Assembly: GCA_049325515.1 (NCBI GenBank)
Contig: JBMOLI010000011.1
Location: 89,022-153,021, forward strand
DNA: 64,000 nucleotides
Direction: 5' to 3'
Source of the DNA: Actinomycetota bacterium
Lineage (GTDB): Bacteria; Actinomycetota; Acidimicrobiia; Acidimicrobiales; VFJN01
Positions 22,784 through 57,400 of the stretch are shown here, piece by piece. Position numbers and translations under genes: made by a program. Numbering within the stretch: position 1 is the first letter of the stretch; each line of letters opens with the position of its first letter. The notes under the pieces were generated by a model that was given only the letters and a program-made list of their open reading frames with translations, did not search any database and was not told the origin of the DNA.

Positions 22784-23049
22784 CGGCGGAATAGTAGGTC
22801 GGATCTTCGGCGCGCCTTCGGCGAATCGCGATCTATGGCATAAGAGCAAATTGGTGCTAACAAGCGGTTTGCACCATGCGACATTCCAGATGCCCTCCGG
22901 TTCGCGCCCGATTGGCCCTTGTTGCTGCAAGAGGCCGTAGACCGATCGGAAGGATGCCTGCTAGGAAGGCAAGCGTTCCGTCAGGTGGGCCAAGCCCCCC
23001 GCGGGAGCATTCACTCATAGGGCGAACCACTAACGGGGGGAAACACCTA

Positions 23050-28364: not shown

Positions 28365-29294
28365 TCAGACCCAGGACGACGGCGATGTGAACCGCGCCAG
28401 GGTCCACGTTGCGGCGGCCGCCGCACAGAGGCCGGCGACCAGCACCGCCTCGACTGCGCCGAGGCCCGACACGACGACGGCGACCACCGCGAGGGCGATC
28501 TGCGCCAGCACGCAAGCGATCACCGCGCGCCGCGCCGTCCACCCACGCGTGACGAGCTGGTCGTAGACATGCCCCCGATCCCCCACGAGCAGAGGTCGCT
28601 TGGCTCGCCAGCGCCGGACTATCGCTACGGACGTATCAGCCACGGGCACACCGAGCAGCAGGACGGCGGCCGCTCTCCATTGGGTCGAGCCGCCGTCGCC
28701 GAGGGTGGCCGCGGCAAGGACCGATAGCCCCGTGCCAAGGAGATAGCTGCCCGAGTCGCCGAGGTAGACGCGTGCCGGAGGGCGGTTCCAGATGAGGAAG
28801 CCCGCCAGCGCTCCGGCCATGCCCGCCGCAAGGATCTGGGGATCTCCATCCAGGATCAGAGCGAAGCCGATCGCGGAGGCCAGCACCGTCCCGGATGCCA
28901 GAGCGTCGAGCCCGTCGAGAAGGTTGACCGCGTTTACGAGCAGGATCGTTCCCACGATGACGATCGGCGTCGTGAGAGCCGGGGCGTCGACGGCCAGCAC
29001 CACCAGGGCGCCGATCACGATCTCAGCCGCGAACCGGAGCCGAGCGGTGAGGTCGGCGATGTCGTCGAGCAGTCCGAGCGCAGCGGCGGCAGCCAACGGA
29101 GGCAGAAGCCCAGCGGCTGCGGGGGCCACCGCAGCGACGACGCCGGCGAGCACCGCTAAGCCGCCGAGGTAGGCAACAGGACGTGATTGCACCTTCAGCG
29201 GACCGGGTCTGTCGACGACCCCGAGCCGGTGTGCGACCCATGCAAAGGCAGGTGTGGTCAGGGCCGTCACGAGGAGCGCGATCGTCAGTGCCAA
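28365..29294 (-). CDS. Polyprenyl-phosphate N-acetylhexosamine-1-phosphate transferase (WecA/MraY family)
   Basis: 309 aa, polytopic, with GLLDDIADL, NAVNLLDGLDAL and YLGDSGSYLLG motifs. TTG start at 29292-29294; alternative GTG at 29270. Confidence 0.85.
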   Translation of the reverse strand: MALTIALLVTALTTPAFAWVAHRLGVVDRPGPLKVQSRPVAYLGGLAVLAGVVAAVAPAAAGLLPPLAAAAALGLLDDIADLTARLRFAAEIVIGALVVLAVDAPALTTPIVIVGTILLVNAVNLLDGLDALASGTVLASAIGFALILDGDPQILAAGMAGALAGFLIWNRPPARVYLGDSGSYLLGTGLSVLAAATLGDGGSTQWRAAAVLLLGVPVADTSVAIVRRWRAKRPLLVGDRGHVYDQLVTRGWTARRAVIACVLAQIALAVVAVVVSGLGAVEAVLVAGLCAAAAATWTLARFTSPSSWV

Positions 29295-33420: not shown

Positions 33421-33443
33421 CTCGACCCGACCCGACCGTTGGT

Positions 33444-35312: not shown

Positions 35313-35416
35313 ATGCACGCGCCACTCCCCCCGATGTCTGCGATGACGGCTTGCGCTTGCGCCCGACAATGAAGAACGGATGTTGGTCCGATCTGGTGGC
35401 TAGATTACTACACATC

Positions 35417-40388: not shown

Positions 40389-40410
40389 TGACCGACTCGA
40401 CCATTCACTA

Positions 40411-41517: not shown

Positions 41518-43554
41518 GTGGCATACGCTCGACAGATGGGCGAGGAGGCGGGCAAGCCACACGTCGAGCGTCCTCAGGGCGCCACCGACGCCGACGAGCT
41601 TCTCGCCGCCGCTCGAGCCGAAGCGGAGCAATGGCGTGAGCTGGCCGAACGGCGGGAGGCCAACCTGCGCGAGCTGAAGCGCAGGCCCCTCGTGCGGCTC
41701 GCACTGCGCCTGGAGCGTCAAGCCAGGCCACTGGCCCGACGGCTGGGTGCACGGTCGCGGGCACCGCTGTTGCGCCTGCCGAAGGCGGTGGTGCTTCTAC
41801 GTGCGCTCCCGATGATCCCACTGCGCGGGCGCCGTCGCCGCGACCTCAGCGGTGAGGTCGCGCATCTGCCGCCGGTGCTGCTCGCGCGCGGTGTGTCGAT
41901 CATCACGTTCGAAGCACAGCTCCGTACGACCGCTCCACTGACGAGCGATGCGACCGCCGAGGTTCAAGTGCTCCATGCAGCCACCGCCCCTTTGCACTCC
42001 TCATCGGAGGAGGTCCCACGGGAAGCGCTGGACACAGTCGTCGCTGCGCTGGATCGAGCGGCCGTCGATGCGACCACCGAGCTCCTCTGCTTCGCGCCCG
42101 CGCCGATCAGCGCACCCGAGCGCGGCTGGCTCGCACGCCTAGCTGCAGCGATCGAGGACGATGTCGTCGCCGCGACTCCGACGACCGTGCACCCGGAGCG
42201 CTCGGGGTCGGGCGCTACCGAGCACGATCTCCGCGTCAGAGCCCAGGGGTACATCATCGAGCTGGGCAGCGGGGGTGATCCGAGTCTGGTCGCAGCTGGT
42301 GCGGGCGCGCGGCTTGCCCTCGGGGAACACCCGCACGACGTCGCCGCGGCTCCCCTTCAGGGCCTTGTCGTCGACACCCTCGCCTACCGCGCGGCAGGAG
42401 GGCTTGATCCGACCCTTGATCAAGACGCCGCCGCGACCGATCTCTGCGCACGATTGGGGCTGGCCGGCGGTCGCGTGGTCCACGTGCCCTCAGCCGTCCT
42501 CTTCGATCCGCGGCCCGTCGAGTCTGTCGCTGCCCTGCGCCACCCCGTCGACCCCACTGGAGGAGCGTGGCGCTCCGTGGTCGAACGACACGGTCAGGGC
42601 GGCTTCCGGAACCGGCCGAGCAACGATGCCGCGACGCCCAGCTGGGTGATCACCACTGCGGCGCCGTCGGCTCGGGTGGCCGACCGCTGGGGGGACTGGC
42701 ACCTGGCCGAGGGGCTGGCCCGCGCGCTCCGCCGGCTCGGCCACGCGGTTCGCGTGCAGACGCTCGATCAAGCCGACTCGCTGGCCGGCCGCTGGCAGGA
42801 CGTCCACATCGTGCTCCACGGCCTGGCAAGCGTGCGGAGGACCAATGGCCAGCGCCACATCATCTGGGTCATCAGCCACCCGGAGACGGTCGACACGGCA
42901 GAGTGCGAGGAGGCCGACCTCGTGGTCGTGGCGTCGCCGCGGTTCGCAAAGGACCTCCAGTCGCGCATCACGACGCCGGTCGAGGTGCTTCTGCAAGCCA
43001 CGGATCCAGGCCGCTTCCGCCCACAAGCACCCGATCCTCGCCACGCTCACCCAGTGACGGTGGTTGCGAAGACGCGGGACGTGATGCGCCGCTCGGTGGC
43101 CGATGCCATCGAAGCGGGCATTCGCCCCGCCATCTACGGCACCGGATGGCGCGACCTGGTCGATGCAGACCTCATCTCCGCGGACCACGTCGACAACCGC
43201 ATGCTGGCGGCCGTCTACAGCAGCGCCGGTGTCGTCCTCAACGACCACTGGGACACCATGCGCGAATGGGGCTTTGTGTCCAATCGGATCTTCGACGTCC
43301 TCGCCTGCGCAACGCCGGTGATATCGGACGACATGAGTGAGGTCCGGGATCTGTTCGGCGATGCCGTCGCAACGTATGGCTCCAGCGAGGAGCTGGGCGA
43401 GCTGGTGCGACGCATCACCGAGGACCCCGGCAAGGCCCGTGCCACTGCGCAGCAGGGTCGCAAGCTCGTACTCGAGCACCACACCTTCGACCATCGAGCA
43501 CAGCAGCTCGTGGGGCTGCTCGAGAAGCACCCCAAGCGGGACATACGTAGCTGA
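41518..43554 (+). CDS. Two-domain putative glycosyltransferase (N-terminal coiled-coil + GT-A-like region; C-terminal CgeB/GT1-like domain)
   Basis: 678 aa, GTG start. The C-terminal half (IYGTGW...VLNDHWDTMREWGFVSNRIFDVLACATPVISDD...EELGELV...LEHHTFDHRA) resembles the CgeB-type GT-B C-domain. The N-terminal half is only weakly GT2-like. Confidence 0.5.
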   Translation: MAYARQMGEEAGKPHVERPQGATDADELLAAARAEAEQWRELAERREANLRELKRRPLVRLALRLERQARPLARRLGARSRAPLLRLPKAVVLLRALPMIPLRGRRRRDLSGEVAHLPPVLLARGVSIITFEAQLRTTAPLTSDATAEVQVLHAATAPLHSSSEEVPREALDTVVAALDRAAVDATTELLCFAPAPISAPERGWLARLAAAIEDDVVAATPTTVHPERSGSGATEHDLRVRAQGYIIELGSGGDPSLVAAGAGARLALGEHPHDVAAAPLQGLVVDTLAYRAAGGLDPTLDQDAAATDLCARLGLAGGRVVHVPSAVLFDPRPVESVAALRHPVDPTGGAWRSVVERHGQGGFRNRPSNDAATPSWVITTAAPSARVADRWGDWHLAEGLARALRRLGHAVRVQTLDQADSLAGRWQDVHIVLHGLASVRRTNGQRHIIWVISHPETVDTAECEEADLVVVASPRFAKDLQSRITTPVEVLLQATDPGRFRPQAPDPRHAHPVTVVAKTRDVMRRSVADAIEAGIRPAIYGTGWRDLVDADLISADHVDNRMLAAVYSSAGVVLNDHWDTMREWGFVSNRIFDVLACATPVISDDMSEVRDLFGDAVATYGSSEELGELVRRITEDPGKARATAQQGRKLVLEHHTFDHRAQQLVGLLEKHPKRDIRS

Positions 43555-43707: not shown

Positions 43708-44751
43708 ATGACCGATGGTTCGCGATCAGCGGGAGAGTCTGACGACATCGACTCGCTCGGAGCGGCACCGACGCGTCCGGCGGGCGGATCGGCGAAGAAG
43801 CGCGGGCGCGTTCGACGTCGGCTGCGCATCCCTGCGCGTGGCCGGGGACCGCTCGCCAAGATCGGGCTGGCGCTCGTCCTGATCGTTGCGTTGGCCCTCA
43901 CGCCGAGCGCGATGTCGAGCCTGAAGAAGACGCCGCGGAACATGGTCGGCATCAGCTACGGCGGCGGGCCGGTCGAGTCAGCCCACTTCCAGCGGATCGT
44001 CCAGCCGGGCAGTGGGCTCTTCTTCAACGGCGCATTCGATCCGCTCTACCTCTATCCGGCCGACACCCAGACGTACATCGTGTCCAAGGTCGCGGGCGAG
44101 GGCGCTGTCAAGCAGGCGGACTCCATCATCTCACCGTCACGCGACCGGGTTCAGATCGAGTACCAGGTCGCGGTGTACTTCAAGCTCAACACCGATCGTC
44201 TGCGGGCCTTCCACGAGGAGCTCGGGCTCCAGTACTCGGCCTACGAGGCGAGCGGTTGGGACCGCCTGATCCAGGACACGTTCCGCCAGCAGATCGAGAA
44301 CGCCCTCCAGGAGGACACGAGGAAGTACGACGTTGCGGACATATACGGCAACGCCGATGATCTGACCACGATCCAGACGAACGTCGAGAAGAAGGTGAGC
44401 GACCGACTCATCGCTGCACTCGGGCAGCCCTTCTTCTGCGGCCCCACCTACGCACCGGGCAAGCCATGCGGGCCCCCCACGTTCGTCATCAAGAAGATCG
44501 ACATCCCCGAGGATGTCGCACAGGCCTTCCAGGACAACCGCACCTCCCAGATCGAGGTCCTGACGAGTCAGAACCAGATCGAGCAGCGGGCCGCCGAAGC
44601 GAAGGCCATCGAAGCACTCAACGCGGGCTTGGCGCAGGCAGGCATGCCGTATGTGCTGTTGCGAGCCATCGAGTCCGGCAAGATCACCTTCTGGGTGCTG
44701 CCGTCTGACGGCAGTGTCGACCTTCAGCCGCCCAGTACTCTGCAGCCTTAG
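43708..44751 (+). CDS. SPFH/Band 7 (stomatin-prohibitin-like) membrane protein
   Basis: 347 aa, ATG after GGGAGGG. N-terminal TM helix (IGLALVLIVALAL), an SPFH-like core and a C-terminal Q/A-rich helix (QNQIEQRAAEAKAIEALN). Confidence 0.7.
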   Translation: MTDGSRSAGESDDIDSLGAAPTRPAGGSAKKRGRVRRRLRIPARGRGPLAKIGLALVLIVALALTPSAMSSLKKTPRNMVGISYGGGPVESAHFQRIVQPGSGLFFNGAFDPLYLYPADTQTYIVSKVAGEGAVKQADSIISPSRDRVQIEYQVAVYFKLNTDRLRAFHEELGLQYSAYEASGWDRLIQDTFRQQIENALQEDTRKYDVADIYGNADDLTTIQTNVEKKVSDRLIAALGQPFFCGPTYAPGKPCGPPTFVIKKIDIPEDVAQAFQDNRTSQIEVLTSQNQIEQRAAEAKAIEALNAGLAQAGMPYVLLRAIESGKITFWVLPSDGSVDLQPPSTLQP

Positions 44752-44765
44752 GAGGGGTCGTGGAG

Positions 44766-45215
44766 ATGGACTACGTGATGGTGCCGGTGCCCGAGGAGCA
44801 CGTCATCGATGTGATGCTCCACGTTGCCCGCCTGGTCGCCCGAGCGTCGGTAGTCCCCTGGACCGACGACGCAGTCGCCGAGCTGTTCGACGAGGTCGAC
44901 GAAGCCAGCCGGTCACTTCTCTCGCTCGTCGCGCGCAGTACGACCGCCTCCAAGGACATCGGCGACGAAGACGCCGCCAAGACCCTCGAGCTGAACGTGC
45001 GCGAGGTGCGGGCGATCGTCTCCGACATCAACGTGTTGGCGCAGCGCGGCAAGCGCGAGCCGCTCCTCGCTCTACGGGATGTCTCAGTCGTGCTGCGCAA
45101 CGGTCGCACGGTCGAGAAGCGCCTCTTCACGATGGCCGACACCGTCGCCCGCGCCATCCGCGCCCACGAGCGCGCATCGCTGGACGCACCGTCCGGCCCA
45201 GGTCCCTCGGAGTGA
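44766..45215 (+). CDS. Small protein of unknown function, paralog 1 (possible HTH-like)
   Basis: 149 aa from ATG 44766 (GGAGGGG 8 nt upstream): MDYVMVPVPEEHVIDVMLHV... It aligns along its length with the 53904-54341 product. Confidence 0.55.
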   Translation: MDYVMVPVPEEHVIDVMLHVARLVARASVVPWTDDAVAELFDEVDEASRSLLSLVARSTTASKDIGDEDAAKTLELNVREVRAIVSDINVLAQRGKREPLLALRDVSVVLRNGRTVEKRLFTMADTVARAIRAHERASLDAPSGPGPSE

Positions 45216-46087
45216 GTCTTCGAGCTGACTCTGCGAGCGGCGCGCGGAGGTACAGCAACGTGGTGCACGTGTTCGAGCCGAACTCGCTCGAGCTCCCGTC
45301 GCTCCGGCCCTACGTCAAGGAGCTGATCGCGAGGAAGCCCTTCCTGGTGGAGCTGGCCGGGGCTCAGGTCAAGGGGCAGCGCTCCAGCACCGTCCTGGGC
45401 GAGCTCTGGTCCCTGGTCGATCCCGTGTTCCAGGCCTCCATCTATTGGTTCCTCTTCACCATCATCCGCGGAGGAAGCAACGGCGGCAGGTCGACGGAGT
45501 ACGTGACGGCGATCATCGGCGGCGTGTTCCTCTTCAACTACACGCGCATCTCGATCAGCGACGGCGGGCAGGCCATCCTTCGACACAAGGGCCTCGTCCT
45601 GAACGCGATCTTCCCGCGAGCCTTGCTGCCGCTCGCAGAGGTCTACAAGGGCTTCCTCTCGACACTGCCGGCTCTCGTCCTGTACGCCCTGATCCACCTT
45701 GCGGTGGGCGCGCCGGTCACCCAGGCGATCATGATGCTGCCGCTCCTGCTCCTGATACAGACAGCGTTGAACGTCGGCCTGGCGCTGCTCTTCTCGACCG
45801 CCACCGCCTATTTCAAGGACGTGTCCAACCTCCTCAAATATCTGCTTCGACTGCTCACGTTCGCCACCCCGGTTGTCTACCCGGTGTCGCTCCTGAGCCC
45901 GTCCATCAAGGCGATCCTGAGCTGGAACCCGCTGTTCGCACTCTTCTCTGCCTACCAGTCGATCATCGCAGGCCAGGTTCCTTCGGCCGGTCTGGTGTTC
46001 CAGAGCATCGCGTGGGCCATCGTCCTCTTTGCATCTGGAGTGTCGCTGTTCCTCCGGCACGAGCGATCGTTCGCCCTCCATGTCTGA
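45212..46087 (+). CDS. ABC-2-type polysaccharide exporter permease (Wzm/TagG type)
   Basis: 291 aa from GTG 45212 (GTGA overlap). Six hydrophobic helices, with LWSLVDPVFQASIYWFLF and SWNPLF motifs. The upstream 187 codons of the track ORF were rejected. Confidence 0.85.
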   Translation: MSLRADSASGARRYSNVVHVFEPNSLELPSLRPYVKELIARKPFLVELAGAQVKGQRSSTVLGELWSLVDPVFQASIYWFLFTIIRGGSNGGRSTEYVTAIIGGVFLFNYTRISISDGGQAILRHKGLVLNAIFPRALLPLAEVYKGFLSTLPALVLYALIHLAVGAPVTQAIMMLPLLLLIQTALNVGLALLFSTATAYFKDVSNLLKYLLRLLTFATPVVYPVSLLSPSIKAILSWNPLFALFSAYQSIIAGQVPSAGLVFQSIAWAIVLFASGVSLFLRHERSFALHV

Positions 46088-46871
46088 AGCGGTTGGGCGC
46101 TCGAGCCTGGCGATCGAGGTCGACCACCTTTCCGCGTCGTATCACGTGCGCGTCGGCAGAGCCGCCGGTTGGTGGGGTCTCAAGGGGATCCTCAGCTCCA
46201 GCGGATCAGGGCGCCGTGAGGTGCAAGCGCTGAGCGATGTGAGCTTCAACGTTCCAAAGGGCACTGTGCTCGGGATCATCGGCCGGAACGGGGCCGGCAA
46301 GTCCACGCTGCTGCGCACCCTCTCCGGCATCCTCGCCCCGAGCGAGGGGAGGATCGTCGTGCGCGGCCGCATATCGCCGCTGCTGTCGGTTGGCTTGGGG
46401 ATGCAGGGCGACCTCACGGGTCGCGAGAACATCAGACTTGGCGCCCTCGCCTTCGGCCATTCGGCCGGCGAGCTCGAGCGCCTCGAGGCCTCGATCGCCG
46501 AGTTCGCTCAGCTCGGCGAGTACGTCGACTACCCGTTCAAGACCTACTCCGCTGGCATGCGCTCGCGCCTCGGCTTCGCCGTAGCCGCACATCTCGATCC
46601 GGAGATCCTTCTCATCGACGAGGCTCTCACCGGCGGTGACGCCAAGTTCAAGGAGAAGACGGCCGAGAAGATGTTCGAGCTGTGTGGCGACGGTCGCACG
46701 ATCGCGGTGGTGACCCACGGCCTCTCACTGGTGCGGTCGATCGCCACCACCGCGCTCTGGCTTCACCAAGGGAAGATCGTCGAGTTCGGCGATCCGGACG
46801 ACGTCGTCGCGGCATACATGAGGTATTGCCGCATCGACGCCGCCCACATGGACCTGGTCGATGACGATTGA
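46080..46871 (+). CDS. ABC polysaccharide exporter ATP-binding protein (Wzt/TagH type), NBD only
   Basis: 263 aa from ATG 46080 (8-nt overlap). Walker A GRNGAGKST, signature YSAGMRSRL, Walker B ILLIDEAL. No C-terminal carbohydrate-binding extension. Confidence 0.9.
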   Translation: MSEAVGRSSLAIEVDHLSASYHVRVGRAAGWWGLKGILSSSGSGRREVQALSDVSFNVPKGTVLGIIGRNGAGKSTLLRTLSGILAPSEGRIVVRGRISPLLSVGLGMQGDLTGRENIRLGALAFGHSAGELERLEASIAEFAQLGEYVDYPFKTYSAGMRSRLGFAVAAHLDPEILLIDEALTGGDAKFKEKTAEKMFELCGDGRTIAVVTHGLSLVRSIATTALWLHQGKIVEFGDPDDVVAAYMRYCRIDAAHMDLVDDD

Positions 46872-47703
46872 TGCAGCTTCACGCGCCGCCTACGCGCTAG
46901 CCCGGGCCCGACACCGCTTCCGCAAGGGCCGATCGCCGGCAGGACCCGCCGTCGTCTTCTCGATGGCCAAGACGGGTTCCTCTGCGGTCGTCGCGGGGCT
47001 CCGCGCGGCGGGTTGGCGTGACCTCTACCACGTGCACGATCTCGATCCGGAGTTCCTCCGGGCCGAGGAGGTCCAGTATCGATGGTCCGGGCGACCGTGG
47101 CGCATCTGGGACGCTCAGCTCCTGCTCCAGCGAGGCCGCAGCCGCGACCAGCCGTGGCGCGTCATATCCCTCGTCCGTGACCCGGTGGCACAGACCGTCT
47201 CGGCGTTCTTCCAACCAGGCATGCGTCACGGCTACATACGACCCGGCGCGACGATCGGCGAGCTTCGCGACCGCTTCGGCGATCGGCTCGACCGGCTGCC
47301 CCTGGGCTGGTTCGATTCCCATCTCCTCCCGACCCTCGGGATCGATGTGTACGACTTCGACTTCGATCCCGACGTCGGCTACCGGATCATCGACACCCCG
47401 ACCGTGCGACTCCTTCTACTGCGTTGCGAGGGCCTCGAAGTGGCTCCGCGAGCGCTGATCGCGCTGCTGGAGGACGATCGCCTGATCCGGATCCCGAAGG
47501 CAAACGTCGGCGCGGACAAGGCGTACGCGCACATGTATCAGCAGTTCATCCAGTCCGTCCGCCCGACTCCTGAGCAGCTCGACCGCGCGTACAGCTCGCG
47601 CCTCGTTCAGCACTTCTACTCCCCGCGTGAGATCGACCAGTTCAGGGCGCTTTGGTCTGATGGTGCCTCAGAATCAGGCGGTTCGGCCCTCTTAGGCGAC
47701 TAG
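46861..47703 (+). CDS. Sulfotransferase-like protein
   Basis: 280 aa with FSMAKTGSSAV (5'-PSB-like) and SLVRDPVAQTVSAFF (3'-PB-like). 11-nt overlap with the wzt-type gene. Confidence 0.65.
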   Translation: MTIDAASRAAYALARARHRFRKGRSPAGPAVVFSMAKTGSSAVVAGLRAAGWRDLYHVHDLDPEFLRAEEVQYRWSGRPWRIWDAQLLLQRGRSRDQPWRVISLVRDPVAQTVSAFFQPGMRHGYIRPGATIGELRDRFGDRLDRLPLGWFDSHLLPTLGIDVYDFDFDPDVGYRIIDTPTVRLLLLRCEGLEVAPRALIALLEDDRLIRIPKANVGADKAYAHMYQQFIQSVRPTPEQLDRAYSSRLVQHFYSPREIDQFRALWSDGASESGGSALLGD

Positions 47704-47725: not shown

Positions 47726-50700
47726 ATGCAGCTGATCGTGCTGGGCATGCATCGCTCCGGCACGTCGAGCGTCACCCGGCTTCTGAACCTCGCCGGCGCC
47801 TACTTCGGGCCGGAGGGGATCGCCACCGACCCCAACGCGGAGAACCCGAAGGGCTTCTGGGAGCGTCGAGACGTCCGCCAGGTCTGTGACGGCCTTCTCC
47901 TCGGCGGGGGGTTCGACTGGTGGCGCATCGCGGACTTCGCCCCGGACCGCATTCCCGAGGCGGCGAGAGCCGAGCAGACCGACAACTTCAACCGCATCGT
48001 GCATCAGCTCGATGCGCATCGACCGTGGGTCATGAAGGAGCCACGGCTGTGCCTGCTCATGCCGCTGCTGCGCCCGGCTCTGGAGGCGCCCGTCTTCATC
48101 CATGTGACTCGCGAGCCGCTCGAGATCGCTGAATCGCTCGCTGCTCGCAACGGGTTCAGCGTGCCGGTCGGCCTGGCTATGTGGGAGGCGTACACGCTGG
48201 GCGCGCTGGCAGCATCGTCTGATCAGCCGCGAGCTCACGTCTCGTACGGCGAGCTGATGGCCGACCCGGTCGGAGTCACGACACGCCTGGTCACGCGCCT
48301 CGAAGACCTCGGGGTGCAGGGACTCCGCGTGCCGAGCGAGCGCGAGGTCACGTCGTTCATCACACCCGACCTCCACCGTCAGCGCGAGCACAGCGAGAAC
48401 CGACGCGGCTACCTCAACGCGTCGCAGCTGCTGCTGGCGGAGATGCTCGACGAGGGCGGGCTGCCGGATGGGGCCCAGGTCCCAAGCCTGTCGGGCGGTG
48501 CGGTCGCAGCGCTTCGCGCTTTCGAACGTGCGCAGGCGGTGACGGCAGAGCTGACCGAGCTCCGGCTAGAGACCGAAGCGGAGCGCGAGCGCGCCGCTGT
48601 GGAAGCCGCGGCTGAGGCGGCGGCGCACCAACGGGCTCTCGACAAGCTCCGGAGCGAGCAGCGGGAGCGGGACAAGTCGCACGAGCAGCGCGAGCATGAG
48701 CTCCGGGCCGACGCGGCGGACGCCGCACGAGCGACGCGCGACGCGGAGCTCCAGGCGGTGGAGGCCCTCGATCTCGCAGCGCGCAAGGTTCGATCAGCAC
48801 GGCGCTCGGGAGTGGTTCGGATCGGCCGACGCCTGGCACCGATCCGGGCGCTGCTTCGAGGCGGGTCGACCGCTGGAGTGGACGACGCCCTCCAGTCGGC
48901 GCTGAAGCGGATCGACGAGGCGCGAACGGGTCTTCACGGCCATCTGGGCCTCTTGCGCCCGGAGGGCATCGACGCGTTGCCGGAGGTGATGGCTGCCGAT
49001 GAGCTCAGGCTGCACCGCGGAGCTGCGCGCGCACGCGGCGAACGAGCGAAGGTGGCGGTGCTCGCCTGGGACGTCGGACACAACCCGTTCGGGAGGGCTC
49101 ACCTCCTGGCCGACCTGCTGAGAGAGCGCTTCGACGTTGAGATCTGGGGGAGCCAGTTCGAGCGCTACGGCGCAAGCGTGTGGTCGCCACTTCGTGAGAC
49201 GACGATCCCGGTGAGGAGAGCCCCGGGAAGCAGCTTCCCGGACTATCTCGACACGATGGAGGACTTGGCGCAACGCATCGACGCCGACGCGATCTACGTC
49301 AGCAAGCCGCGCCTGCCCTCCCTCGCCGTGGGGATCCTCGCCAAGGAGCGATGGAACCGACCGCTGGTCGTCGACATCGACGACTTCGAGCCTTCGTTCT
49401 TCGGCGAGAGTGCGGGGTTGGCGGCAGACGACATCCGAGCGCTGCGCGGCAACGACGACCTCACGCTTCCCTTCGGCCGGCTGTGGACCCAGGCCTGCGA
49501 GCACGCCGTGAGATCTGCCGACCAGCTGACGGTGTCGAACCTCGAGCTCGAGGCCCACTACGGCGGCGCGATCGTGCCTCACGCCCGGGACGAAGCCCGA
49601 TTCGATCCAGCGCGATGCGACCGCGCGCTTACCCGCCAGCGGCTGGGGCTCTCCGATGCGGACCGTCTCATCCTGTTCGGGGGCACGCCACGAGCTCACA
49701 AGGGGATCCTCGACATCCTCAAGGCCTTGGACAGGCTTGGCGACCGGACCATCCGTCTCGGCGTGTTCGCATCCCGAGAGCTGGACGAGCTGCGCCGAGA
49801 GATGGGGGCGCTGGAGCGCTGGGTGCTCCCACTCCCCTCGCCTGCCTTCGACGACCTTCCGGACCTTCTGGCGGGCGCTGACCTCACCTGCGCGCTCCAG
49901 ACTCACGGCCACCCTGTGTCTCGGTTCCAGATGCCGGCCAAGGTCACCGACGCCATGGCCATGGGCGTCCCGTGCCTCGTGACACCGGTGCCCCCGCTGC
50001 AGGCACTGATCGACAAAGACGTGCTCGAGGTCTTCGACGGTGAGATCCCGCTCGAGGAGCGGATCCGAGAGGTCCTCGGCAACGTTGACGAGACGACCGA
50101 GCGGGCCATGCGCGCCCGCGAGGTCTTCCTCGAGTCATACAGCTACGCGGCCGTCAGGCCGTTGGCCGTGGCCGCGATCGAGCGTTACATGGACGACCCG
50201 CCGCCGCTCGCAAAGCCCCTCGCGGATCTGGTGACGACCACGCGCGACCTCTTCAGGCCAGGCGGGGGTGAGCTGGCTCCGAGTGTGAAGACCCCGCCGC
50301 GCGACGGTCGCAGGGCACTGCCTGCGGGAGCGATCTACGACCTCGTCGTGTTCTGGAAGCAGAACGACACAGGGATCTACGGCCGGCGGCAGGACATGAT
50401 GCTGAAGTACCTCGAGCGATCGGGGCGGTTCCACACGATCATCCACTTCGACAAGCCGATGAGCGCCAAGGGCCTGGCCGAGGTCGCTCGCCGCAGCCTG
50501 GGAAGCTCGGATCAGAACGGCCTTGTGCTGAGGCAGACGATGAGACGGCTGGCCGGCCGCGGCGACCGGGGGGCACTGAAGCAGCGGACCTTCCTCTACG
50601 GCACGGGCGGTCGATCGCGCTCGCTGGGCCTGCCCCGCCGCGATGGCTACGTGGACTACGTGCGAGCGCAGCTTCGCAAGGAGGGTGTCGGCGCCGGCCG

Positions 50701-51541
50701 GCGGCCACTGATGTGCCTGGTGTACCCGACCAACAGCTGGTTCCCTGAGATCGCAGAGGCGATCTCGCCCGATGTCGTCGTTGCAGACGTGGTGGACGAC
50801 AACCGCAGCTGGTACGCACCCGGAACCGCGGCTTATGACGACCTCAACGACAACTACGAACGAGTTCTCGCGTGGAGCGACGTGGTCCTGGCGAACTGCG
50901 AGCCGGTCGCTGAGAGCATGCGTGCGTTCACGCCGCGGGTAGAGGTCCTCCCGAACGCCTGCGAGCTCCCGATCGATGCTCGCCCACATCCTCGTCCTGC
51001 CGAGCTGAGACACCTGGGCAGCCCCATCATCGGGTACGCGGGGAACCTCTCGGATCGCATCGACCTCCACCTCCTGCGCCAGCTCATAGCTGCGAGGCCG
51101 GAGTGGAGCTTCGTGTTCCTGGGATCAACCCACCTCGATCGGTCCGCGCTGCAGCTCGCCGGCCAGCCCAACGTCACCTTCATCGGCACCCGTCGTCATG
51201 AACAGGCCCAGGAGATCATCCGACACTTCGACGTGGCACTCATCCCCCACCTCGACAACGAGATGACGAGATCGATGAACCCACTCAAGGCCTACGTCTA
51301 CTGCTCGCTCGGCGTTCCAATCGTCTCGACGCCGGTCGCGAACCTCGACGAGCTCTCGGAGTACATCTCCGTCGCAGATGGTCCTGACGAGTTTCTCGAG
51401 GCCATCGAAGCAGCTCTCAGCACTGAGCACGGGATCCCCGATCGGGAGGCACTCATCCCCCACTCGTGGGAGGCCAGGGTGTCGCGTGTCCTCGAGCTGG
51501 TCGACGCCGAGGTCACAGGGCGCCGCGATGACGAAGGCTGA
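47726..51541 (+). CDS. Multidomain sulfotransferase / coiled-coil / GT-B glycosyltransferase / GT-B glycosyltransferase fusion (1271 aa)
   Basis: - aa 1-235: LGMHRSGTSS, VMKEPR, HVTREPLEIAES (sulfotransferase).
- aa about 258-360: heptad-rich Ala/Glu/Arg helix (ELTELRLETEAERERAAVEAAAEAAAHQRALDKLRSEQRERDKSHEQREHELRA...).
- aa about 441-800 and about 860-1260: two GT4/GT1-like domains (LFGGTPRAHKG...; IGYAGNLSDRID...NPLKAYVYCSLGVPIVST). Confidence 0.75.
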   Translation: MQLIVLGMHRSGTSSVTRLLNLAGAYFGPEGIATDPNAENPKGFWERRDVRQVCDGLLLGGGFDWWRIADFAPDRIPEAARAEQTDNFNRIVHQLDAHRPWVMKEPRLCLLMPLLRPALEAPVFIHVTREPLEIAESLAARNGFSVPVGLAMWEAYTLGALAASSDQPRAHVSYGELMADPVGVTTRLVTRLEDLGVQGLRVPSEREVTSFITPDLHRQREHSENRRGYLNASQLLLAEMLDEGGLPDGAQVPSLSGGAVAALRAFERAQAVTAELTELRLETEAERERAAVEAAAEAAAHQRALDKLRSEQRERDKSHEQREHELRADAADAARATRDAELQAVEALDLAARKVRSARRSGVVRIGRRLAPIRALLRGGSTAGVDDALQSALKRIDEARTGLHGHLGLLRPEGIDALPEVMAADELRLHRGAARARGERAKVAVLAWDVGHNPFGRAHLLADLLRERFDVEIWGSQFERYGASVWSPLRETTIPVRRAPGSSFPDYLDTMEDLAQRIDADAIYVSKPRLPSLAVGILAKERWNRPLVVDIDDFEPSFFGESAGLAADDIRALRGNDDLTLPFGRLWTQACEHAVRSADQLTVSNLELEAHYGGAIVPHARDEARFDPARCDRALTRQRLGLSDADRLILFGGTPRAHKGILDILKALDRLGDRTIRLGVFASRELDELRREMGALERWVLPLPSPAFDDLPDLLAGADLTCALQTHGHPVSRFQMPAKVTDAMAMGVPCLVTPVPPLQALIDKDVLEVFDGEIPLEERIREVLGNVDETTERAMRAREVFLESYSYAAVRPLAVAAIERYMDDPPPLAKPLADLVTTTRDLFRPGGGELAPSVKTPPRDGRRALPAGAIYDLVVFWKQNDTGIYGRRQDMMLKYLERSGRFHTIIHFDKPMSAKGLAEVARRSLGSSDQNGLVLRQTMRRLAGRGDRGALKQRTFLYGTGGRSRSLGLPRRDGYVDYVRAQLRKEGVGAGRRPLMCLVYPTNSWFPEIAEAISPDVVVADVVDDNRSWYAPGTAAYDDLNDNYERVLAWSDVVLANCEPVAESMRAFTPRVEVLPNACELPIDARPHPRPAELRHLGSPIIGYAGNLSDRIDLHLLRQLIAARPEWSFVFLGSTHLDRSALQLAGQPNVTFIGTRRHEQAQEIIRHFDVALIPHLDNEMTRSMNPLKAYVYCSLGVPIVSTPVANLDELSEYISVADGPDEFLEAIEAALSTEHGIPDREALIPHSWEARVSRVLELVDAEVTGRRDDEG

Positions 51542-52289
51542 TCGGCCGGCCTCGATGGGTGAGCCCACTCGCTACTTCTTCGTCCACCTTCAGAAGACCG
51601 GCGGCACGGCACTCTTCCAGCGCCTCCGCGACTGCTTCGGGCCCGCTGCGGTCTACCCGAGACCGGACCTGGACGGCGGGGTGGAAGCCGTCACCGAGGT
51701 CGACCGCATGGTCGAGGCGTTCGCGACGCGTCGCAACGAGCTGCGCGTCATGACCGGCCACTTCCCACTCTGCGCCGTCGACGTGCTCGACGCTCCGTTC
51801 AAGACCTTCACGGTGCTCCGGGATCCGGTCGAACGAACGCTCTCCCTGCTGCGCCGGCGCAGCGTCGCCGACGAGCGCTTCAGGGATCTCGAGCTCGAGG
51901 CGATCTACGCCGACGAGTCCCTCCAACCGATCATCCGCAACCACATGGTGAAGATGCTGTCGCTCACTACGGACGAGATGACCGAGGCGCCCCTCCTCGC
52001 CACCGTGCCCTTCGACGACGCTCGCCTCGAGGTCGCGAAGGAGAACCTCGCCCAGAGGATCGATGTGTTCGGGCTCCAGGACCACTTCGAGGACTTCTGC
52101 AGTGACCTCGAAGTGAGCTTTGGCTGGGATCTTGGGTCACCGCGGTTTGCGAATCGCACTCCTCCGCGCGCCGTGAGCGACGAGCTGAGGCAGCTCATCG
52201 CAGCGGACAACAGCCTGGACGTAGAGCTCTACGCGTTTGCGACAAGAGCTCTCAGCGAGCGAACGGCCCGCCAGGTGCGCCGTGCCTGA
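51528..52289 (+). CDS. Sulfotransferase family 2-like protein
   Basis: FFVHLQKTGGTAL and TVLRDPVERTLSLL. Paralog of 53071-53868. ATG 51528 overlaps the upstream gene by 14 nt; alternative ATG at 51555. Confidence 0.75.
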   Translation: MTKADRPASMGEPTRYFFVHLQKTGGTALFQRLRDCFGPAAVYPRPDLDGGVEAVTEVDRMVEAFATRRNELRVMTGHFPLCAVDVLDAPFKTFTVLRDPVERTLSLLRRRSVADERFRDLELEAIYADESLQPIIRNHMVKMLSLTTDEMTEAPLLATVPFDDARLEVAKENLAQRIDVFGLQDHFEDFCSDLEVSFGWDLGSPRFANRTPPRAVSDELRQLIAADNSLDVELYAFATRALSERTARQVRRA

Positions 52290-52299
52290 GGGAAAGGTC

Positions 52300-53064
52300 G
52301 TGATCACCGGGACGGGTCGGGCGGGCACGACGCTGCTCGTCCAGGTGCTCGATGAGCTCGGACTCGACACAGGTCTCGCCGCGGGGAAGCTCACGCCCTA
52401 CGGACACAGCGTCCGCGCGGGCTTCGAGTGCCGCGTCGATGATCCTGACGCCCCGACCATCGTGAAAGACATGACCCTCGGGTTCAGGATGCGAGCGGTG
52501 CTCGAGAGTGGCGGCGTGCAGATCGATCACGTGATCATCCCGACCCGGAGGCTCGACATCGCTGCGGCCAGTCGCATCCGAGCGGCGAGCTACGGACGAC
52601 TTCCCTTCAAGCGCGGCGCCCTGACCGGCACGCTGCACGCCACGGGCCAGAAGAAGATCCTCGTACGGATGCGGAAGGAGATCGTCGACGCTCTCGAGGA
52701 GTTCGAAATTCCGTTCACCGAGCTCGAGTTCCCCAAGTTCGCCACTGACGCTGCCTACACGCATCAGTCGCTGGGCTTCCTCGTTCCCGGTGCCTCGCAG
52801 GACGACTTCCAGCACGCACTCGAACGCGTGGTGCGCCCTGATCTGATCCACGAAGAGCCACTGACACGGCGAGAGCGCTGGCGCACCCGTGCCACCACGC
52901 TCTGGATGGCCGCTGTCAGGTACCCGGTCGCCCGCGTGCGCCGATGGATCGATCCTGAGGGATCGAAGGAGCGGCTGCGCGCGTCCGTGGCCGCCGCACA
53001 GAAGGCCGAGGCAGCGGCAGCCGAGCGGGAGCGTCGGGGGGAGGTGCCGACCCAGGGCTCCTGA
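52300..53064 (+). CDS. P-loop protein, sulfotransferase-like (weak)
   Basis: GTG 52300 after GAGGGAAAGG gives (M)ITGTGRAGTTLLVQVL at the N-terminus. IIPTRRLDIAAAS is a possible 3'-PB motif. The C-terminal Ala/Glu/Arg helix is family-less. Confidence 0.45.
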   Translation: MITGTGRAGTTLLVQVLDELGLDTGLAAGKLTPYGHSVRAGFECRVDDPDAPTIVKDMTLGFRMRAVLESGGVQIDHVIIPTRRLDIAAASRIRAASYGRLPFKRGALTGTLHATGQKKILVRMRKEIVDALEEFEIPFTELEFPKFATDAAYTHQSLGFLVPGASQDDFQHALERVVRPDLIHEEPLTRRERWRTRATTLWMAAVRYPVARVRRWIDPEGSKERLRASVAAAQKAEAAAAERERRGEVPTQGS

Positions 53065-53070: not shown

Positions 53071-53868
53071 TCAGTCAGCAGTCGGCTTGCGGGGGTCGCG
53101 CTGTCGCTGGAGCTGCTGTGCGTAGGCGTAGAGCTCCAGATCGATGGCGTTGTCCTCGGCGATCCGTCGCCGCAAGGCGTCGCTGACGGGCTGGATCTCG
53201 CTCGCTGGCGTGGCGTTGGCTCGCGCGTCACGCTCCACATCCCAGCCGAACCAGGCGTGCAGGTCGTCGAGGAACTCGTCGTAGCGCTCGGTGAGGCCGA
53301 GAACGTCGATGCCAGCCAGGTTCTGCTTGGCGAGCTGCAGCCGCTCGTGATCGACGTCGATCACGTCCATGTAGCTCTGCGGATCATCCGATGGCCGCAT
53401 GGAGAAGATCTTCGTCTGGTGGTTGTGGATCAGCGGTTCGAAGACGATCGCCTGCTCATAGATCTCGTCGAGGGTGCTGGATTCGAGAGTCGGGCCTGGA
53501 GTCGGGTCGAGCCACGGGGCCTTGCGCATGAACTGCCTCAAGAGGGAGATCGTGCGCTCGATCGGGTCGCGTAGCAGCGTCACCGTCGTGAGCTTCCTGC
53601 GCAGCAGGTCGGCCGCGACCAGCGGAAAGTGACCGGTGTAGACGCGAATGCGTTCGTGGCGTTCCGGGCCGAGCCCCACGAGATATGGCACGGAGAGGTG
53701 GTGCTGCACGTCGACCTTCGGTCCGTCGAACTGGATGTCCAGCTTTCGGTACGGATAGAGCTGATCGAGCTCGTAGTTGGCGCGCAGGTTTCGGAAGAGT
53801 GTGGTGCCCCCGGTCTTCATGACGTGGACGAAGAAGATCGGCGGAGAGCTGGGGTCATGTGGCGCCAT
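53071..53868 (-). CDS. Sulfotransferase family 2-like protein
   Basis: 265 aa with IFFVHVMKTGGTTL and TLLRDPIERTISLL. Collinear with the 51528-52289 product, including the C-terminal DN(A/S)(I/L)D(L/V)ELYA(Y/F)A. Confidence 0.75.
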   Translation of the reverse strand: MAPHDPSSPPIFFVHVMKTGGTTLFRNLRANYELDQLYPYRKLDIQFDGPKVDVQHHLSVPYLVGLGPERHERIRVYTGHFPLVAADLLRRKLTTVTLLRDPIERTISLLRQFMRKAPWLDPTPGPTLESSTLDEIYEQAIVFEPLIHNHQTKIFSMRPSDDPQSYMDVIDVDHERLQLAKQNLAGIDVLGLTERYDEFLDDLHAWFGWDVERDARANATPASEIQPVSDALRRRIAEDNAIDLELYAYAQQLQRQRDPRKPTAD

Positions 53869-53903: not shown

Positions 53904-54341
53904 TCACTCGGTGGATCCCTCGGACCGGCGCCCCGCTGCGCGGATCAGCGCTGCGACATCCGGTCGCATCCCGACGAACACGATCGTGCCCGTCTGACCG
54001 TGAACGCCCACGGCCTTCTCGGCGCGGAGCTCGAGGAGCTCTCGCCCACCGGCGGCAACGTGCTGGTCGTTCAGCTCGGCGATCCGGTCGCGCAGCGCCT
54101 TTCCCTCCAGGTCGAGCTCGTCGGCGAGGTCGCGAAGTCGAGGCGGATCGTCGGCGGACGTGGCGGTCGCGACGATTCGCAAGAGGTTGCGCGTCACTTC
54201 GTCTGCCTCGGAGAGCAGCGCGTCGATGGTCTCGGCCGTTGCCTTGGCGGGCTCCCCTTCCTCGTCGTCAGCGCGAAAGAGCACCCACCTCATCACGTCC
54301 AATACGAACTCAGCGGGAACCGGGACCAGTACGTAACCCAC
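53904..54341 (-). CDS. Small protein of unknown function, paralog 2
   Basis: 145 aa from GTG 54339-54341 (GAGAGG upstream): (M)GYVLVPVPAEFVLDVMRWV... Related to the 44766-45215 product. Confidence 0.55.
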   Translation of the reverse strand: MGYVLVPVPAEFVLDVMRWVLFRADDEEGEPAKATAETIDALLSEADEVTRNLLRIVATATSADDPPRLRDLADELDLEGKALRDRIAELNDQHVAAGGRELLELRAEKAVGVHGQTGTIVFVGMRPDVAALIRAAGRRSEGSTE

Positions 54342-54470
54342 CCGTACCTCTCATTTCGGAATAGATGGCAGAAAGCCTCGACAAACCCACACAATGCCCC
54401 TCGGCCCTTCAACCGTCGATGCCCTGGGTCGATACGCTACGTGCTTCCACTGCAAGGGGGGCTTACAGAG

Positions 54471-57400
54471 GTGTTTCCACTTTGGGAGGCCGCGATCGCG
54501 CCGGTGCTCGCCGCGACGAAGGCCAAGCGCGTCGTGGAGATCGGCGCGCTTCGTGGCGACACCACCAAGCTCATGCTCGACTTCCTCGGCCCTGAGGCCG
54601 AGCTCCACGTGATCGACCCCGCCCCGGACTTCGATCCCACGGAGCACGAGCGCACCTTCGCAGGGCGATACCACTTCCATCGCGATCTGAGCCACAACGT
54701 GCTCCCGCACCTCGAGCCGATGGACGCCGCTCTGATCGATGGCGACCACAACTGGTACACGGTGTACCACGAGCTGTCGATGCTCGCGAAGGTTGCCCGG
54801 GATGCAGGACGACCACTGCCGGTCCTCATACTCCACGACGTGTGCTGGCCCTACGGCCGGCGCGACCTCTACTACTCACCTGATCAGATCCCGGACGAGT
54901 TCCGCCAGCCGTGGGCGCGGGCCGGCATGCGCCCCGACGTCAAGGGCTTGCTGCCCAAGAGCGGGGTCAACCCGACGATGTGCAACGCCGAGATGGAGGG
55001 CGGCCCGCGCAACGGGGTGATGACCGCGCTCGATGACTTCATCGCGGAGCACGACCGACCCGTGCGCCGGCTGCTCATCCCGATCTACTTCGGCCTGGCC
55101 ATCGTCGCCGAGGAGGGAGTGCTGGCCGAGCGCCCCGACCTGGCCGCCGCGCTCGATCGCATAGAAGGCCAAGACGGCCAGCGAGAGCTTCTCGAGGTCG
55201 CCGAGGAGACTCGCATACGGGCTCTCGTGTTCCAGCACACCTCGATCCAAGCGAGTCAGCGGAAGCTCGCTCGAACGGCGAGCCGCTACCTGGAGCTGCT
55301 CAAGGGATCGCTGCTGAACGAGCACTACCTGGAGAACGAGATCCGGCTCCGGTATCTCGCTCGCTGCTTGTCCAACGACGAGGCCGTGGAGCCAGACCGA
55401 GTGCGCGATCCAGTCCGCTTCCAGCCTGACGTCTACAACAGGCTGCGGCGCCGTCGACGCGATGGGCTGACCATGCCGTTGGACGGCGCCAACGGCTTTC
55501 TGCCCTACACGGCGATGGGGCGTACCCGCCTGGACCACCTCGAGCAGTGCCTCGACTCGATCCGCGCCGACGGAGTACCGGGTGATCTCATCGAGTGCGG
55601 CACGGGCCGAGGCGGTGGAGCGATCTTCCTCCGCGGCTACCTCGCCGCGCACGAGCTGCCCGACCGCAAGGTCTGGGTCGCTGATCGTTTCCGCGCCTCG
55701 CCCGCGCCGGCGCGCGAAGCCCGCGTGGTCGACGAGTCGATGTCCGACCTTAAGGCCGACCTCAACCTCGTGCGCGACGCGTTCGAGCGCTTCGATCTCC
55801 TCGATGACCGCGTGCGCTTCCTCCAGGGACCGATCGACGACACCGTGCCGAAGGCCGCTGTCGAGCAGATCGCACTGCTTCGCATCGGGCCCGAGGGCGG
55901 CTCCGCGGCAGGCGCGGTGCTCGAGGCGCTCTATCCCAAGCTCTCGGTGGGCGGCTTCGTGGTGATCGACGAGTACGCCGACCCGTCGTGCGCGGCAGCA
56001 GTGACCGCCTTCCGCGTGGACCACGGCATCAGCGCGCCCCTCGAGCCCGTCGACTGGTCCGCAGTCGGCTGGCAGAAGACCGAGCAGGTCGACCCGGTGC
56101 CCGCACACCAATCGCTGGCCCGCTCGGCGTCACTTGGCCTTCCGCTGGCCCCGCCACCGCCGATCGACTCGATCGACCTGACCGTGGTCGTCGTCTTCTA
56201 CAACATGAAGCGAGAAGCCGAGCGGACCCTTCGGTCGCTGTCGCGGCCGTATCAGCTGGATCTCGAGGATGTCACCTACGAGGTCATCGCCGTCGAGAAC
56301 GGATCCGACGACGATCAGAAGCTCGGCGCAGACTACGTCGCGAGCTTTGGTCCCGAGTTCCGCTACCTCGACCTGGGTGACGACGCCCGACCCTCTCCCG
56401 CGCACGCGCTGAACCGCGGCATAGCAGAGGGACGTGGCAAGGCGTTTGCGCTCATGATCGACGGTGCCCATGTCCTCACCCCCAGCGTGCTGAAGTTCGG
56501 ACTCGCCGGCTTGAAGACATACGAGCCCGCAATCGTCGCTACGCAGCAGTGGTATCTGGGCCCGGGCCAGCAGGGCGAAGCCATGAGCGACGGCTACGAC
56601 CAGGCGTACGAGGATCGGCTGTTCAAGCAGATCGGCTGGCCCGAAGCCGGGTACCGCCTGTTCGAGATCGGTCACTTCGTCGGCGGCCGCGACTGGCTCG
56701 ACGGGGTGTGGGAGAGCAACTGCATGTTCGTGCCGCGCCGGCAGCTCGAGCAGGTCGGCGGGTTCGACGAGAGCTTCTCCATGCCCGGCGGAGGCTTCGC
56801 CAACCTCGAGCTCTATGAGCGGCTCGGCTCATCGCCTGACGTGACCGTTGCGACCATCATCGGCGAGGGCTCGTTCCACCAGGTGCACGGCGGCGTCACG
56901 ACCAACCAGCCGGAGGCGGACGAGCGGCGAGCACGGGTGTTCGGCTACGGGGAGCACTTTGCCGAGCTTCGCGGCAGGCGCTTCCGCGGGCCCGGCAAGC
57001 CCATCCACTACGTGGGTCGCATCGCCTCACCCGATGCGCGACGCAGCCGCCCGCGGCGCCTCACGGGTGAGATGTTCGGGCGCGGAGCAGATGCTCCGGA
57101 TCCCGACGGCCTCCCCGCCACGCCACTGCCGGTCACCGAAGACCTACGTGTGGGGTTCGTCGAGGCGGTGTGGCGGAGCCTTGCCTGGAACACCACGACC
57201 TGGCTCGGCCGTCACCTGACGAGTGCACCCACCGACCTGATCGCGTACCAGCAGCTCATCGCCAGCGTACGACCCGACTGGATCATCGAGACCGGCACCG
57301 CTGACGGCGGCCGCACCCTGTTCCTCGCATCGATCTGTGAGCTCCTGGATCACGGTCAGGTGGTGTCGATCGACAGCGGCATCTCAGAGGGCGTGCCCCT

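Follow-up and report, generated by a model that had tools for sequence, protein, structure and literature searches.

We analysed a single open reading frame (ORF), located at positions 47726..51541 of the forward strand of a 64,000-nucleotide stretch of the Actinomycetota contig JBMOLI010000011.1 (the whole of this stretch is called the window hereafter), whose product joins a predicted sulfotransferase domain, a long helix and two glycosyltransferase (GT) modules of the GT-B fold, and whose gene lies beside the wzm and wzt genes of an ABC transporter. The reading that we favour, with about even confidence, is that this fusion is a sulfate-capping terminator-polymerase with a helical ruler, acting on a lipid-linked surface glycan of the ABC-transporter-dependent route. 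To the broader proposal that such a sulfate cap is widespread, with a single dedicated clade of sulfotransferases (at least 817 clusters), length-variable coils and shuffled polymerase modules in monoderm and diderm bacteria, the version in the window being free of a carbohydrate-binding module (CBM), we give somewhat less than even weight.

Inspection of the sequence agreed with the first-pass annotation on the presence of a 1271-amino-acid ORF starting with an ATG, on the 22 nucleotides that separate this ATG from the stop of the upstream sulfotransferase-like gene of the NKWYS family (46861..47703), and on the overlap of the latter gene with wzt, its ATG (46861) overlapping the wzt stop (46869-46871). 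The order of the domains (sulfotransferase, long helix, GT-B, GT-B), also given in that annotation, was borne out by Pfam, AlphaFold2 models, Foldseek and the homologues. Upstream, wzm (45260..46087, forward strand) encodes an ABC-2 permease of 275 amino acids, which was identified by Pfam ABC2_membrane and by a weak NCBIfam match to galactan Wzm/RfbD, and wzt (46080..46871, forward strand) encodes a nucleotide-binding subunit of 263 amino acids, with 77 bits for Pfam ABC_tran and an NCBIfam likeness to TagH and galactan Wzt that extends to residue 251. At its other end, the fusion ORF has its stop overlapped by the ATG of the downstream gene (51528); the genes from wzm and wzt through the NKWYS gene to the fusion make up a tightly packed operon with overlaps. 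Independent gene calls on the identical contig gave the same sizes for Wzm, Wzt, the NKWYS protein and the fusion (275, 263, 280 and 1271 amino acids, respectively). The architecture is not an assembly artefact, because more than 100 independent homologues have it. Comparison of the fusion protein with NCBIfam returned no model naming it.

The N-terminal domain (amino acids 1-245; 47726..48460, forward strand) matched Pfam Sulfotransfer_3 (PF13469) over residues 3-192 with 33.2 bits against a cut-off of 27, and the AlphaFold2 model placed a globular alpha/beta domain directly N-terminal of the helix. The top 18 Foldseek matches of this domain in the PDB were all sulfotransferases (CurM/OLS ST, TPST1/2, Stf9, Stf1 and others); these matches were distant (E 5e-5 to 1e-3, probability 0.99-1.00), and P-loop kinases ranked below them. 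The similarity of the domain to solved sulfotransferases at the sequence level was marginal (profile E 0.1 to 0.24). Residues G7-M-H-R-S-G-T-S14, E46, K104, R107 and R129/S137 were invariant in 78 members of the family, and the same residues, together with R141 and W153, were invariant in 45 sequences from many phyla. The GMHRSGTS loop is without the Walker-A lysine of kinases. From what is established for enzymes of the TPST and NodH types, we take this loop and R129...S137 to be the 5'-phosphosulfate and 3'-phosphate motifs for 3'-phosphoadenosine 5'-phosphosulfate (PAPS), and E46 is a candidate for the catalytic glutamate. The domain is thus predicted to be a PAPS-dependent sulfotransferase, and the invariance across phyla of the motifs of an active enzyme of this type argues for catalysis.

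The AlphaFold2 model of residues 1-450, built on a 78-sequence alignment with a mean predicted local distance difference test score (pLDDT) of 90, showed one unbroken helix of 104 residues, rich in Ala, Glu and Arg, from residue 257 to residue 360 (48494..48805, forward strand), with a pLDDT above 90 over most of it; the helix had been placed beforehand at nucleotides 48497-48805 or thereabouts. Its composition is 28% Ala, 40% charged residues and 15% LIVMF. For a protein of such composition, the expected number of runs of 103 residues free of Gly and Pro, as found here, is about 1e-4, and the fusion is the sole protein of the cluster with a long run of this kind, that of the runner-up being 50 residues. 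A long rigid helix, the proposed spacer or ruler, is well supported by the model and would measure about 15 nm, as computed from 104 residues at 0.15 nm each. Pairs of opposite charge at i/i+4 were not enriched (7 observed against 8.2 expected), and an ER/K-type single alpha-helix is not supported by the charge pattern. The helix is followed by a linker of three shorter helices (residues 361-440; 48806..49045, forward strand), modelled by AlphaFold2 with low confidence at 362-378, 385-407 and 424-436 (pLDDT 46-86), which holds a basic amphipathic stretch, VVRIGRRLAPIRALLRG, whose consensus SRxxRxxxxLxxxRxxL is partly conserved. We found no hidden CBM in the fusion, the modelled residues 361-440 being helices only.

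The signals of a heptad repeat came from the family. Individual periodicity tests reached p<=0.05 in 30% of 108 homologues, when 5% were expected, and in the averaged hydrophobicity of the 29 closest homologues a period of 3.54 residues stood out above all others (z=4.45, band p=0.03). In these 29 homologues the helix measured between 73 and 111 residues, and the window protein carries two insertions of exactly 7 residues relative to most of them, while the helices of several homologues contain tandem duplications of 7- or 11-residue units. The differences in spacer length among the 29 homologues, taken modulo 7, were mixed, with classes 0, 3 and 6 dominating; these values come from related sequences with uncertain anchors and were not used statistically. 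Among more distant relatives (loci numbered with L), the coil of L059 had a period of 3.48 (z=5.4), that of L014, which is 181 residues long, had a period of 3.51, the helix of L069 (Chroococcopsis) contained eight copies of the 7-residue unit TQLQETQ, and that of L031 contained 14-residue tandem repeats. A coiled coil is likely at the level of the family, as judged from these periodicities. The helices that follow the sulfotransferase domain in L069, L031, L049 and L067 are made of near-perfect tandem repeats, which suggests that the spacer has recently grown through duplication by whole heptads.

The C-terminal two thirds of the protein were assigned to two complete GT-B modules by an AlphaFold2 model of residues 430-1271 (pLDDT 92.3). 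Module 1 spans residues 441-830 approximately (49046..50215, forward strand) and was matched to GT4 enzymes by Foldseek and to PimB' by profile (E=1e-9), while module 2 spans residues 869-1271 approximately (50330..51538, forward strand) and includes a Pfam Glyco_trans_1_4 match at residues 1100-1232; this Pfam family scored 70 bits over two stretches of the fusion. The Foldseek matches of the modules were MshA, GlgM, BshA, PimB', HepE and the methylmannose-polysaccharide mannosyltransferase (MMP ManT), with E values from 1e-16 to 1e-11 for the GT4 matches and a template modelling score of at most 0.76 on the target. In NCBIfam, module 1 resembled WcaI and TuaC over residues 611-764, and module 2 resembled TuaH over residues 1095-1208. 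Both modules resemble retaining GT4-type GT-B enzymes in their modelled fold and profile matches, and by analogy with the known systems compared below they would act as the polymerase.

More than 100 full-length homologues with the whole architecture were 44-87% identical to the fusion, and those carrying the name of a source came from metagenome-assembled genomes (MAGs) of Acidimicrobiia, Acidimicrobiales or Microthrixaceae. The distance between the end of the sulfotransferase domain and the start of the first GT module varied from 226 to 343 residues in close relatives and reached 447 and 628 residues in distant ones, and the distance between the first and second GT modules was constant, the spacer being the sole part that varies in length. 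The sequence of the spacer was almost unconserved, in contrast to the strong conservation of the three catalytic domains. In nine of the ten gene contexts examined, wzm and wzt adjoined the fusion gene or were located within 4 kb of it; wzm was found with a CBM-less wzt in the window and in P0023, P0039, P0105, P0109, P0113, L005, L011 and L041. The cluster of L084 is minimal and consists of wzm, wzt, dTDP-rhamnose (rml) genes and a fusion with an extra C-terminal methyltransferase, which carries the only sulfotransferase of the cluster. The closest relative in GTDB, L041 (10001-10411, Acidimicrobiia MAG MFD04850.bin.2.5), is 86% identical over the first 102 residues and directly follows wzm and wzt; the sulfotransferase ORF there is cut short at 136 amino acids, for which a frameshift, a masked stretch or a pseudogene are possible explanations.

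The sulfotransferase clade extends beyond Acidimicrobiia. A scan of the GTDB species representatives gave at least 569 loci, in Proteobacteria, Verrucomicrobiota, Planctomycetes, Acidobacteriota, Cyanobacteria and Bacillota, among others, including the Mesorhizobium relatives L054 and L080, and when 1.84 billion representatives were searched in full with HMMER, the clusters (50% identity) numbered 817 at E<=1e-30 and 10,454 at E<=1e-10. Among the best 150 matches listed, the domain was almost always N-terminal in a longer protein, and a run of at least 50 residues free of Pro and Gly followed it in 100 of 142 top representatives. The GT domains of 37 long representatives were of the GT1 type in 33, GT2 in 27 and Glyco_trans_1_2 in 21, with WsaF or WbsX in some; GT25 modules were also found among the fusion partners of the clade. 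Fusions of a sulfotransferase, a coiled coil and GTs near ABC-2 transporters, which the first-pass annotation had proposed to look for, were found, for example in L059 and L072.

In seven loci of Proteobacteria and Cyanobacteria (L053, L060, L081, L051, L068, L072 and L059), the gene for the sulfotransferase protein was directly preceded by wzm and then by a wzt that encodes a Wzt_C module (80-101 bits). The sulfotransferase protein of L059 and L072 has a coil and two GT2 modules after the sulfotransferase domain; that of L053 has two GT2 modules and, between them and the sulfotransferase domain, a 55-residue run free of Pro and Gly with no heptad signal; that of L081 (Rhodanobacter) combines a sulfotransferase, a GT1 and a GT25; and that of L051 is a stand-alone double sulfotransferase with a coil. 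The neighbours of the fusion in L059 (Leptolyngbya, like Rhodanobacter a culturable genus) include two more sulfotransferases and GT2 genes, and there is among them no methyltransferase or kinase able to supply another cap. In L022 and L025-L044 (Dokdonella, Rhodanobacter and Lysobacterales), the sulfotransferase domain is C-terminal (residues 625-860 approximately) in a protein of 850-1050 amino acids, which has an N-terminal GT2 and no long helix and is encoded directly after wzm and a CBM-less wzt; these proteins of reversed order may be a ruler-less variant.

In the mechanism that we propose, the two GT4-like GT-B modules, located at the membrane, would extend the chain at its non-reducing end, while the PAPS-dependent sulfotransferase would be held about 15 nm away by the rigid helix of 104 residues, which is probably a coiled coil, its oligomerisation being suggested by the heptad signals of the family. 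Only a chain long enough to reach the sulfotransferase would receive sulfate on its terminal sugar, at or close to the hydroxyl that is needed for extension, a step that we model on WbdD, WbbB and ORF6 of serotype O7. By analogy with these proteins we infer that the sulfate is a terminal, chain-terminating cap and the helix a length ruler; terminal sulfation would stop growth, so the length of the helix would set the modal length of the chain. The adjacent Wzm and Wzt would export the chain and, as the Wzt of the window is without a CBM, export would probably not be gated by recognition of the cap. The other sulfotransferases and the methyltransferases of the cluster would decorate the backbone.

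Several observations weigh against this proposal. A CBM is present on the Wzt of every experimentally studied terminated system (PMC11231755). The Wzt of the window, as the first-pass annotation had it, has none: it matched ABC_tran alone in Pfam, without any match to Wzt_C, and it ends right after the nucleotide-binding domain. The CBM was likewise absent from 27 of the 36 Wzt proteins near relatives of the fusion, and no transporter was found within 10 kb of the P0045 homologue. No genes of PAPS synthesis were found among the scanned ORFs of the window, a few small ORFs lying outside the scan. The heptad periodicity of the window helix was not significant when taken alone (p=0.15 for the 3.4-3.7-residue band by Fourier analysis), no single heptad register gave good occupancy of positions a and d, and a crude heptad score separated this helix poorly from some globular helices; the expected coiled-coil propensity was thus found at the level of the family, with its period of 3.54 and the canonical coils of relatives, but not in the sequence of the window by itself, and this helix could be a single stable one. 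Moreover, five further sulfotransferase-like genes of at least three subfamilies surround the fusion, which brings the sulfotransferase-like domains to six in all, and sulfation is therefore probably also a decoration of the backbone and not a cap alone.

The abundance of sulfotransferases, which is seen in L001, L059 and L086 as well, also favours a different role for the N-terminal domain, that of a decorating backbone sulfotransferase, one of six, with a helix that dimerises or scaffolds the protein and a chain length governed by how much transporter there is relative to synthase, as in serotype O2a. We hold this to be unlikely, although it is the most serious of the alternatives: the CBM-less Wzt and the weak heptad signal of the window helix agree with it, and there are precedents in Klebsiella pneumoniae both for stoichiometric control, in the CBM-less O2a system, where chain length is determined by the stoichiometry of transporter and synthase, and for a terminal group without a role in length regulation, the pyruvate of O1 (PMC11231755). 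However, a decorating enzyme has no obvious need for a spacer of about 15 nm and of variable length between itself and the polymerase. The same clade of sulfotransferases also stands beside CBM-bearing Wzt proteins, the fusion holds the sole sulfotransferase of the minimal cluster of L084, and the domain of the fusion is unrelated to the other sulfotransferases of the cluster, apart from the P-loop in the comparison with the protein of 57788..58540. It is more doubtful still that the sulfotransferase has a target other than the growing chain end, such as a protein, another glycan, a glycolipid, or the lipid-linked primer or adaptor, and that the fusion serves only co-localisation or co-regulation. 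The closest solved folds, distant matches throughout (E 5e-5 to 1e-3), act on polyketides, tyrosylproteins and glycolipids, and sequence does not reveal substrate specificity, but the recurrent fusion to GTs (GT1-type in 33 and GT2 in 27 of the 37 long representatives) and the recurrent linkage to wzm and wzt point to the polymer of those GTs as the substrate. Least probable is a dead or binding domain, such as one for PAPS or 3'-phosphoadenosine 5'-phosphate (PAP), or a reader of sulfated glycan replacing the CBM that the window Wzt lacks. The terminator part of ORF6 from serotype O7 does carry an extra CBM (PMC11231755), but the RSGTS loop, R129/S137 and E46 of the domain discussed here are invariant across phyla.

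The five other sulfotransferase-like genes are distributed on both sides of the fusion. The NKWYS-family protein (PF10364; 46861..47703, forward strand) scored 63.7 bits in Pfam, contains the motifs KTGSS and RDPVAQTVS (RDPxxxxxS), as read from the translation, and is encoded at the equivalent position in homologous loci. Downstream, the gene at 51528..52289 (forward strand) encodes a Sulfotransfer_2-like protein of 253 amino acids with HxxKTGGT and LRDPxERTxS motifs. It is a paralogue, 38% identical and on the opposite strand, of the Sulfotransfer_2-like protein of 265 amino acids encoded at 53071..53868 (reverse strand), whose Pfam score of 21.4 bits is just under the cut-off of 22. Between them, a protein of 260 amino acids (52282..53064, forward strand) is weakly sulfotransferase-like, with a sub-cut-off Sulfotransfer_3 match (E=0.009) and a P-loop-like GTGRAGTT motif. 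A stand-alone Sulfotransfer_3 protein of 250 amino acids (57788..58540, forward strand; 30.9 bits) was unrelated to the sulfotransferase domain of the fusion except in the P-loop. It is uncommon for a bacterial glycan cluster to hold so many sulfotransferase and methyltransferase genes so close together. The gene at 54471..57770 (forward strand), called at 1099 amino acids in an ORF of 1256 amino acids (54000-57770), encodes a fusion of three methyltransferase domains placed around a GT2 domain, in which Pfam and NCBIfam identified Methyltransf_24, TylF, GT2 and a rhamnosyl-O-methyltransferase/CmcI part (NCBIfam RhmsylMtase-like). This protein was considered as the real terminator and was rejected, its longest run free of Pro and Gly being 42 residues, with no long helix. 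Similar methyltransferase-GT2 fusions recur in the related Acidimicrobiia loci L001 and L086, and this recurrence points to a heavily O-methylated glycan.

A single region devoted to glycan synthesis occupies the window between about 20 and 64 kb. It includes a GT of about 675 amino acids (Pfam Glyco_trans_1_2; 41518..43554, forward strand), whose association with the fusion is conserved in the P0023, P0045 and P0039 contexts, a polyprenyl-phosphate sugar-1-phosphate transferase of the WecA/MraY type (28365..29294, reverse strand; Pfam Glycos_transf_4, PF00953, 86 bits), which probably starts the synthesis of a lipid-linked glycan, several GT4 and GT2 genes, one GNAT and two PhyH-type Fe(II)/2-oxoglutarate dioxygenases (27259-28350, forward strand, and 59693-60766, reverse strand). 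The dioxygenases possibly hydroxylate sugars, and PhyH genes are present in L001 and L002 as well. An SPFH/Band-7 gene (43708-44751, forward strand) and an ORF of 149 amino acids without a Pfam match (44766-45215, forward strand) lie immediately upstream of wzm, and an SPFH gene adjoins wzm and wzt in the P0023 and P0039 contexts too. Between the halves of the region, a gene at 37983-40463 (reverse strand) encodes an 826-amino-acid protein with BNR/Asp-box and Sortilin-Vps10 repeats, which is possibly secreted and either binds glycans or resembles a hydrolase. A DUF4012 protein and large ORFs of 520-836 amino acids without a Pfam match are encoded at 20065-22413 (reverse strand), 22876-24612 (forward strand), 31858-35369 (reverse strand) and 59990-62500 (forward strand); the one of 836 amino acids contains stretches of hydrophobic residues, and a membrane GT-C or a ligase is a possible identity for it. 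Upstream of the region, housekeeping genes on the reverse strand (981-3812, 5889-7178 and 8817-13635) include groEL/groES and those for an alanine racemase, a GlmS-like amidotransferase/SIS protein and a GlmM-like phosphoglucosamine mutase.

If the proposal is true, sulfate would be a fourth kind of cap beside methyl, methyl-phosphate and Kdo (3-deoxy-D-manno-octulosonic acid), and the coiled-coil ruler would be extended to Actinomycetota, a phylum with barely known surface glycans. The system would offer a natural test of length control by a ruler and a terminator when Wzt has no CBM to read the cap, and would mean that termination and the gating of export are separable. A large and recognisable class of proteins, with an N-terminal sulfotransferase of the GMHRSGTS type, a long helix and interchangeable GTs, would then predict sulfated glycans of controlled length from genomes, and could provide the enzymes with which to make sulfated polysaccharides of a chosen length. 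Should the domain merely decorate the backbone, the protein would be an ordinary multi-domain glycan synthase.

In the systems described so far, the coiled coil on the terminator protein is the characteristic marker of the capping strategy, capped glycans of controlled length are recognised by the pairing of a CBM-bearing Wzt with a coiled-coil protein whose catalytic head is not a GT, and the caps named as controlling chain length are methyl, methyl-phosphate and Kdo (PMC11231755). We found in the open-access literature no sulfate cap or terminal sulfate in this pathway, which the 2019 census of terminator chemistry by Mann, Kimber and Whitfield may already list, no fusion of a sulfotransferase, a coil and GTs, and no paper joining a sulfotransferase, a coiled coil and Wzt, an earlier bioinformatic prediction being possible. 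A phmmer comparison of the fusion with all PDB chains gave no match at E<=1, and WbbB chains were absent from the top 50 Foldseek matches of either model. Homology by sequence to WbbB, WbdD or any solved protein was rejected on the lack of a PDB match.

In its layout the fusion resembles WbbB of Klebsiella pneumoniae O12 and Raoultella terrigena, which has an N-terminal terminator, a long coiled-coil-type spacer and two C-terminal GT modules and is encoded with Wzm and Wzt (PMC11231755). The terminator of WbbB is a beta-Kdo glycosyltransferase of family GT99, whereas that of the fusion is a predicted sulfotransferase, and the CBM of the O12 Wzt reads the cap, whereas the Wzt of the window has no CBM. 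The host of the window is a monoderm actinobacterium and the product is therefore not lipopolysaccharide. The earlier claim that the architecture mirrors WbbB holds for the parallel layout of the domains, but, given that no PDB chain was matched by sequence, the fusion would be a functional analogue of WbbB and not a homologue.

In the WbdD and WbdA proteins of Escherichia coli O9a and K. pneumoniae O3 and O5, the catalytic domain of the terminator is held distally on a coiled-coil ruler, the polymerase WbdA is, like that proposed here, made of tandem GT4-type modules, and extension is blocked by a cap that is small and not a sugar, namely methyl or methyl-phosphate (PMC11231755). However, terminator and polymerase are separate proteins in these systems and one fused protein in the window, the chemistry of WbdD is that of a kinase/methyltransferase, and the CBM of Wzt is needed. 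ORF6 of K. pneumoniae O7 resembles the fusion in uniting in one protein an N-terminal terminator that transfers small groups, here a methyltransferase-kinase, a coiled coil where the fusion has its long helix, and two C-terminal GT modules (PMC11231755), but its modules are of the GT2 type instead of GT-B, its cap chemistry is different, and CBMs are present both in its terminator part and in its Wzt (PMC11231755).

The sulfotransferases NodH, Stf0, Stf1, Stf9 and Mesorhizobium loti KpsS have in common with the N-terminal domain the PAPS-type fold and the 5'-phosphosulfate-binding (PSB) and 3'-phosphate-binding (PB) motifs, and NodH belongs, as this domain does, to Pfam Sulfotransfer_3 with a PSB loop of the RxG type (PMC11625862); these five are stand-alone decorating enzymes, and for none of them has a fusion with a coiled coil and GT modules been reported. 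WsaE, which acts on the S-layer glycan of Geobacillus stearothermophilus NRS 2004/3a, differs in its methyl cap, and its description mentions no long ruler helix (PMC2943079). It resembles the fusion of the window in its monoderm host, in the gene order wzm-wzt-wsaE and in the union, within one protein, of an N-terminal cap-adding domain, here a 2-O-methyltransferase, with two GT domains (PMC2943079).

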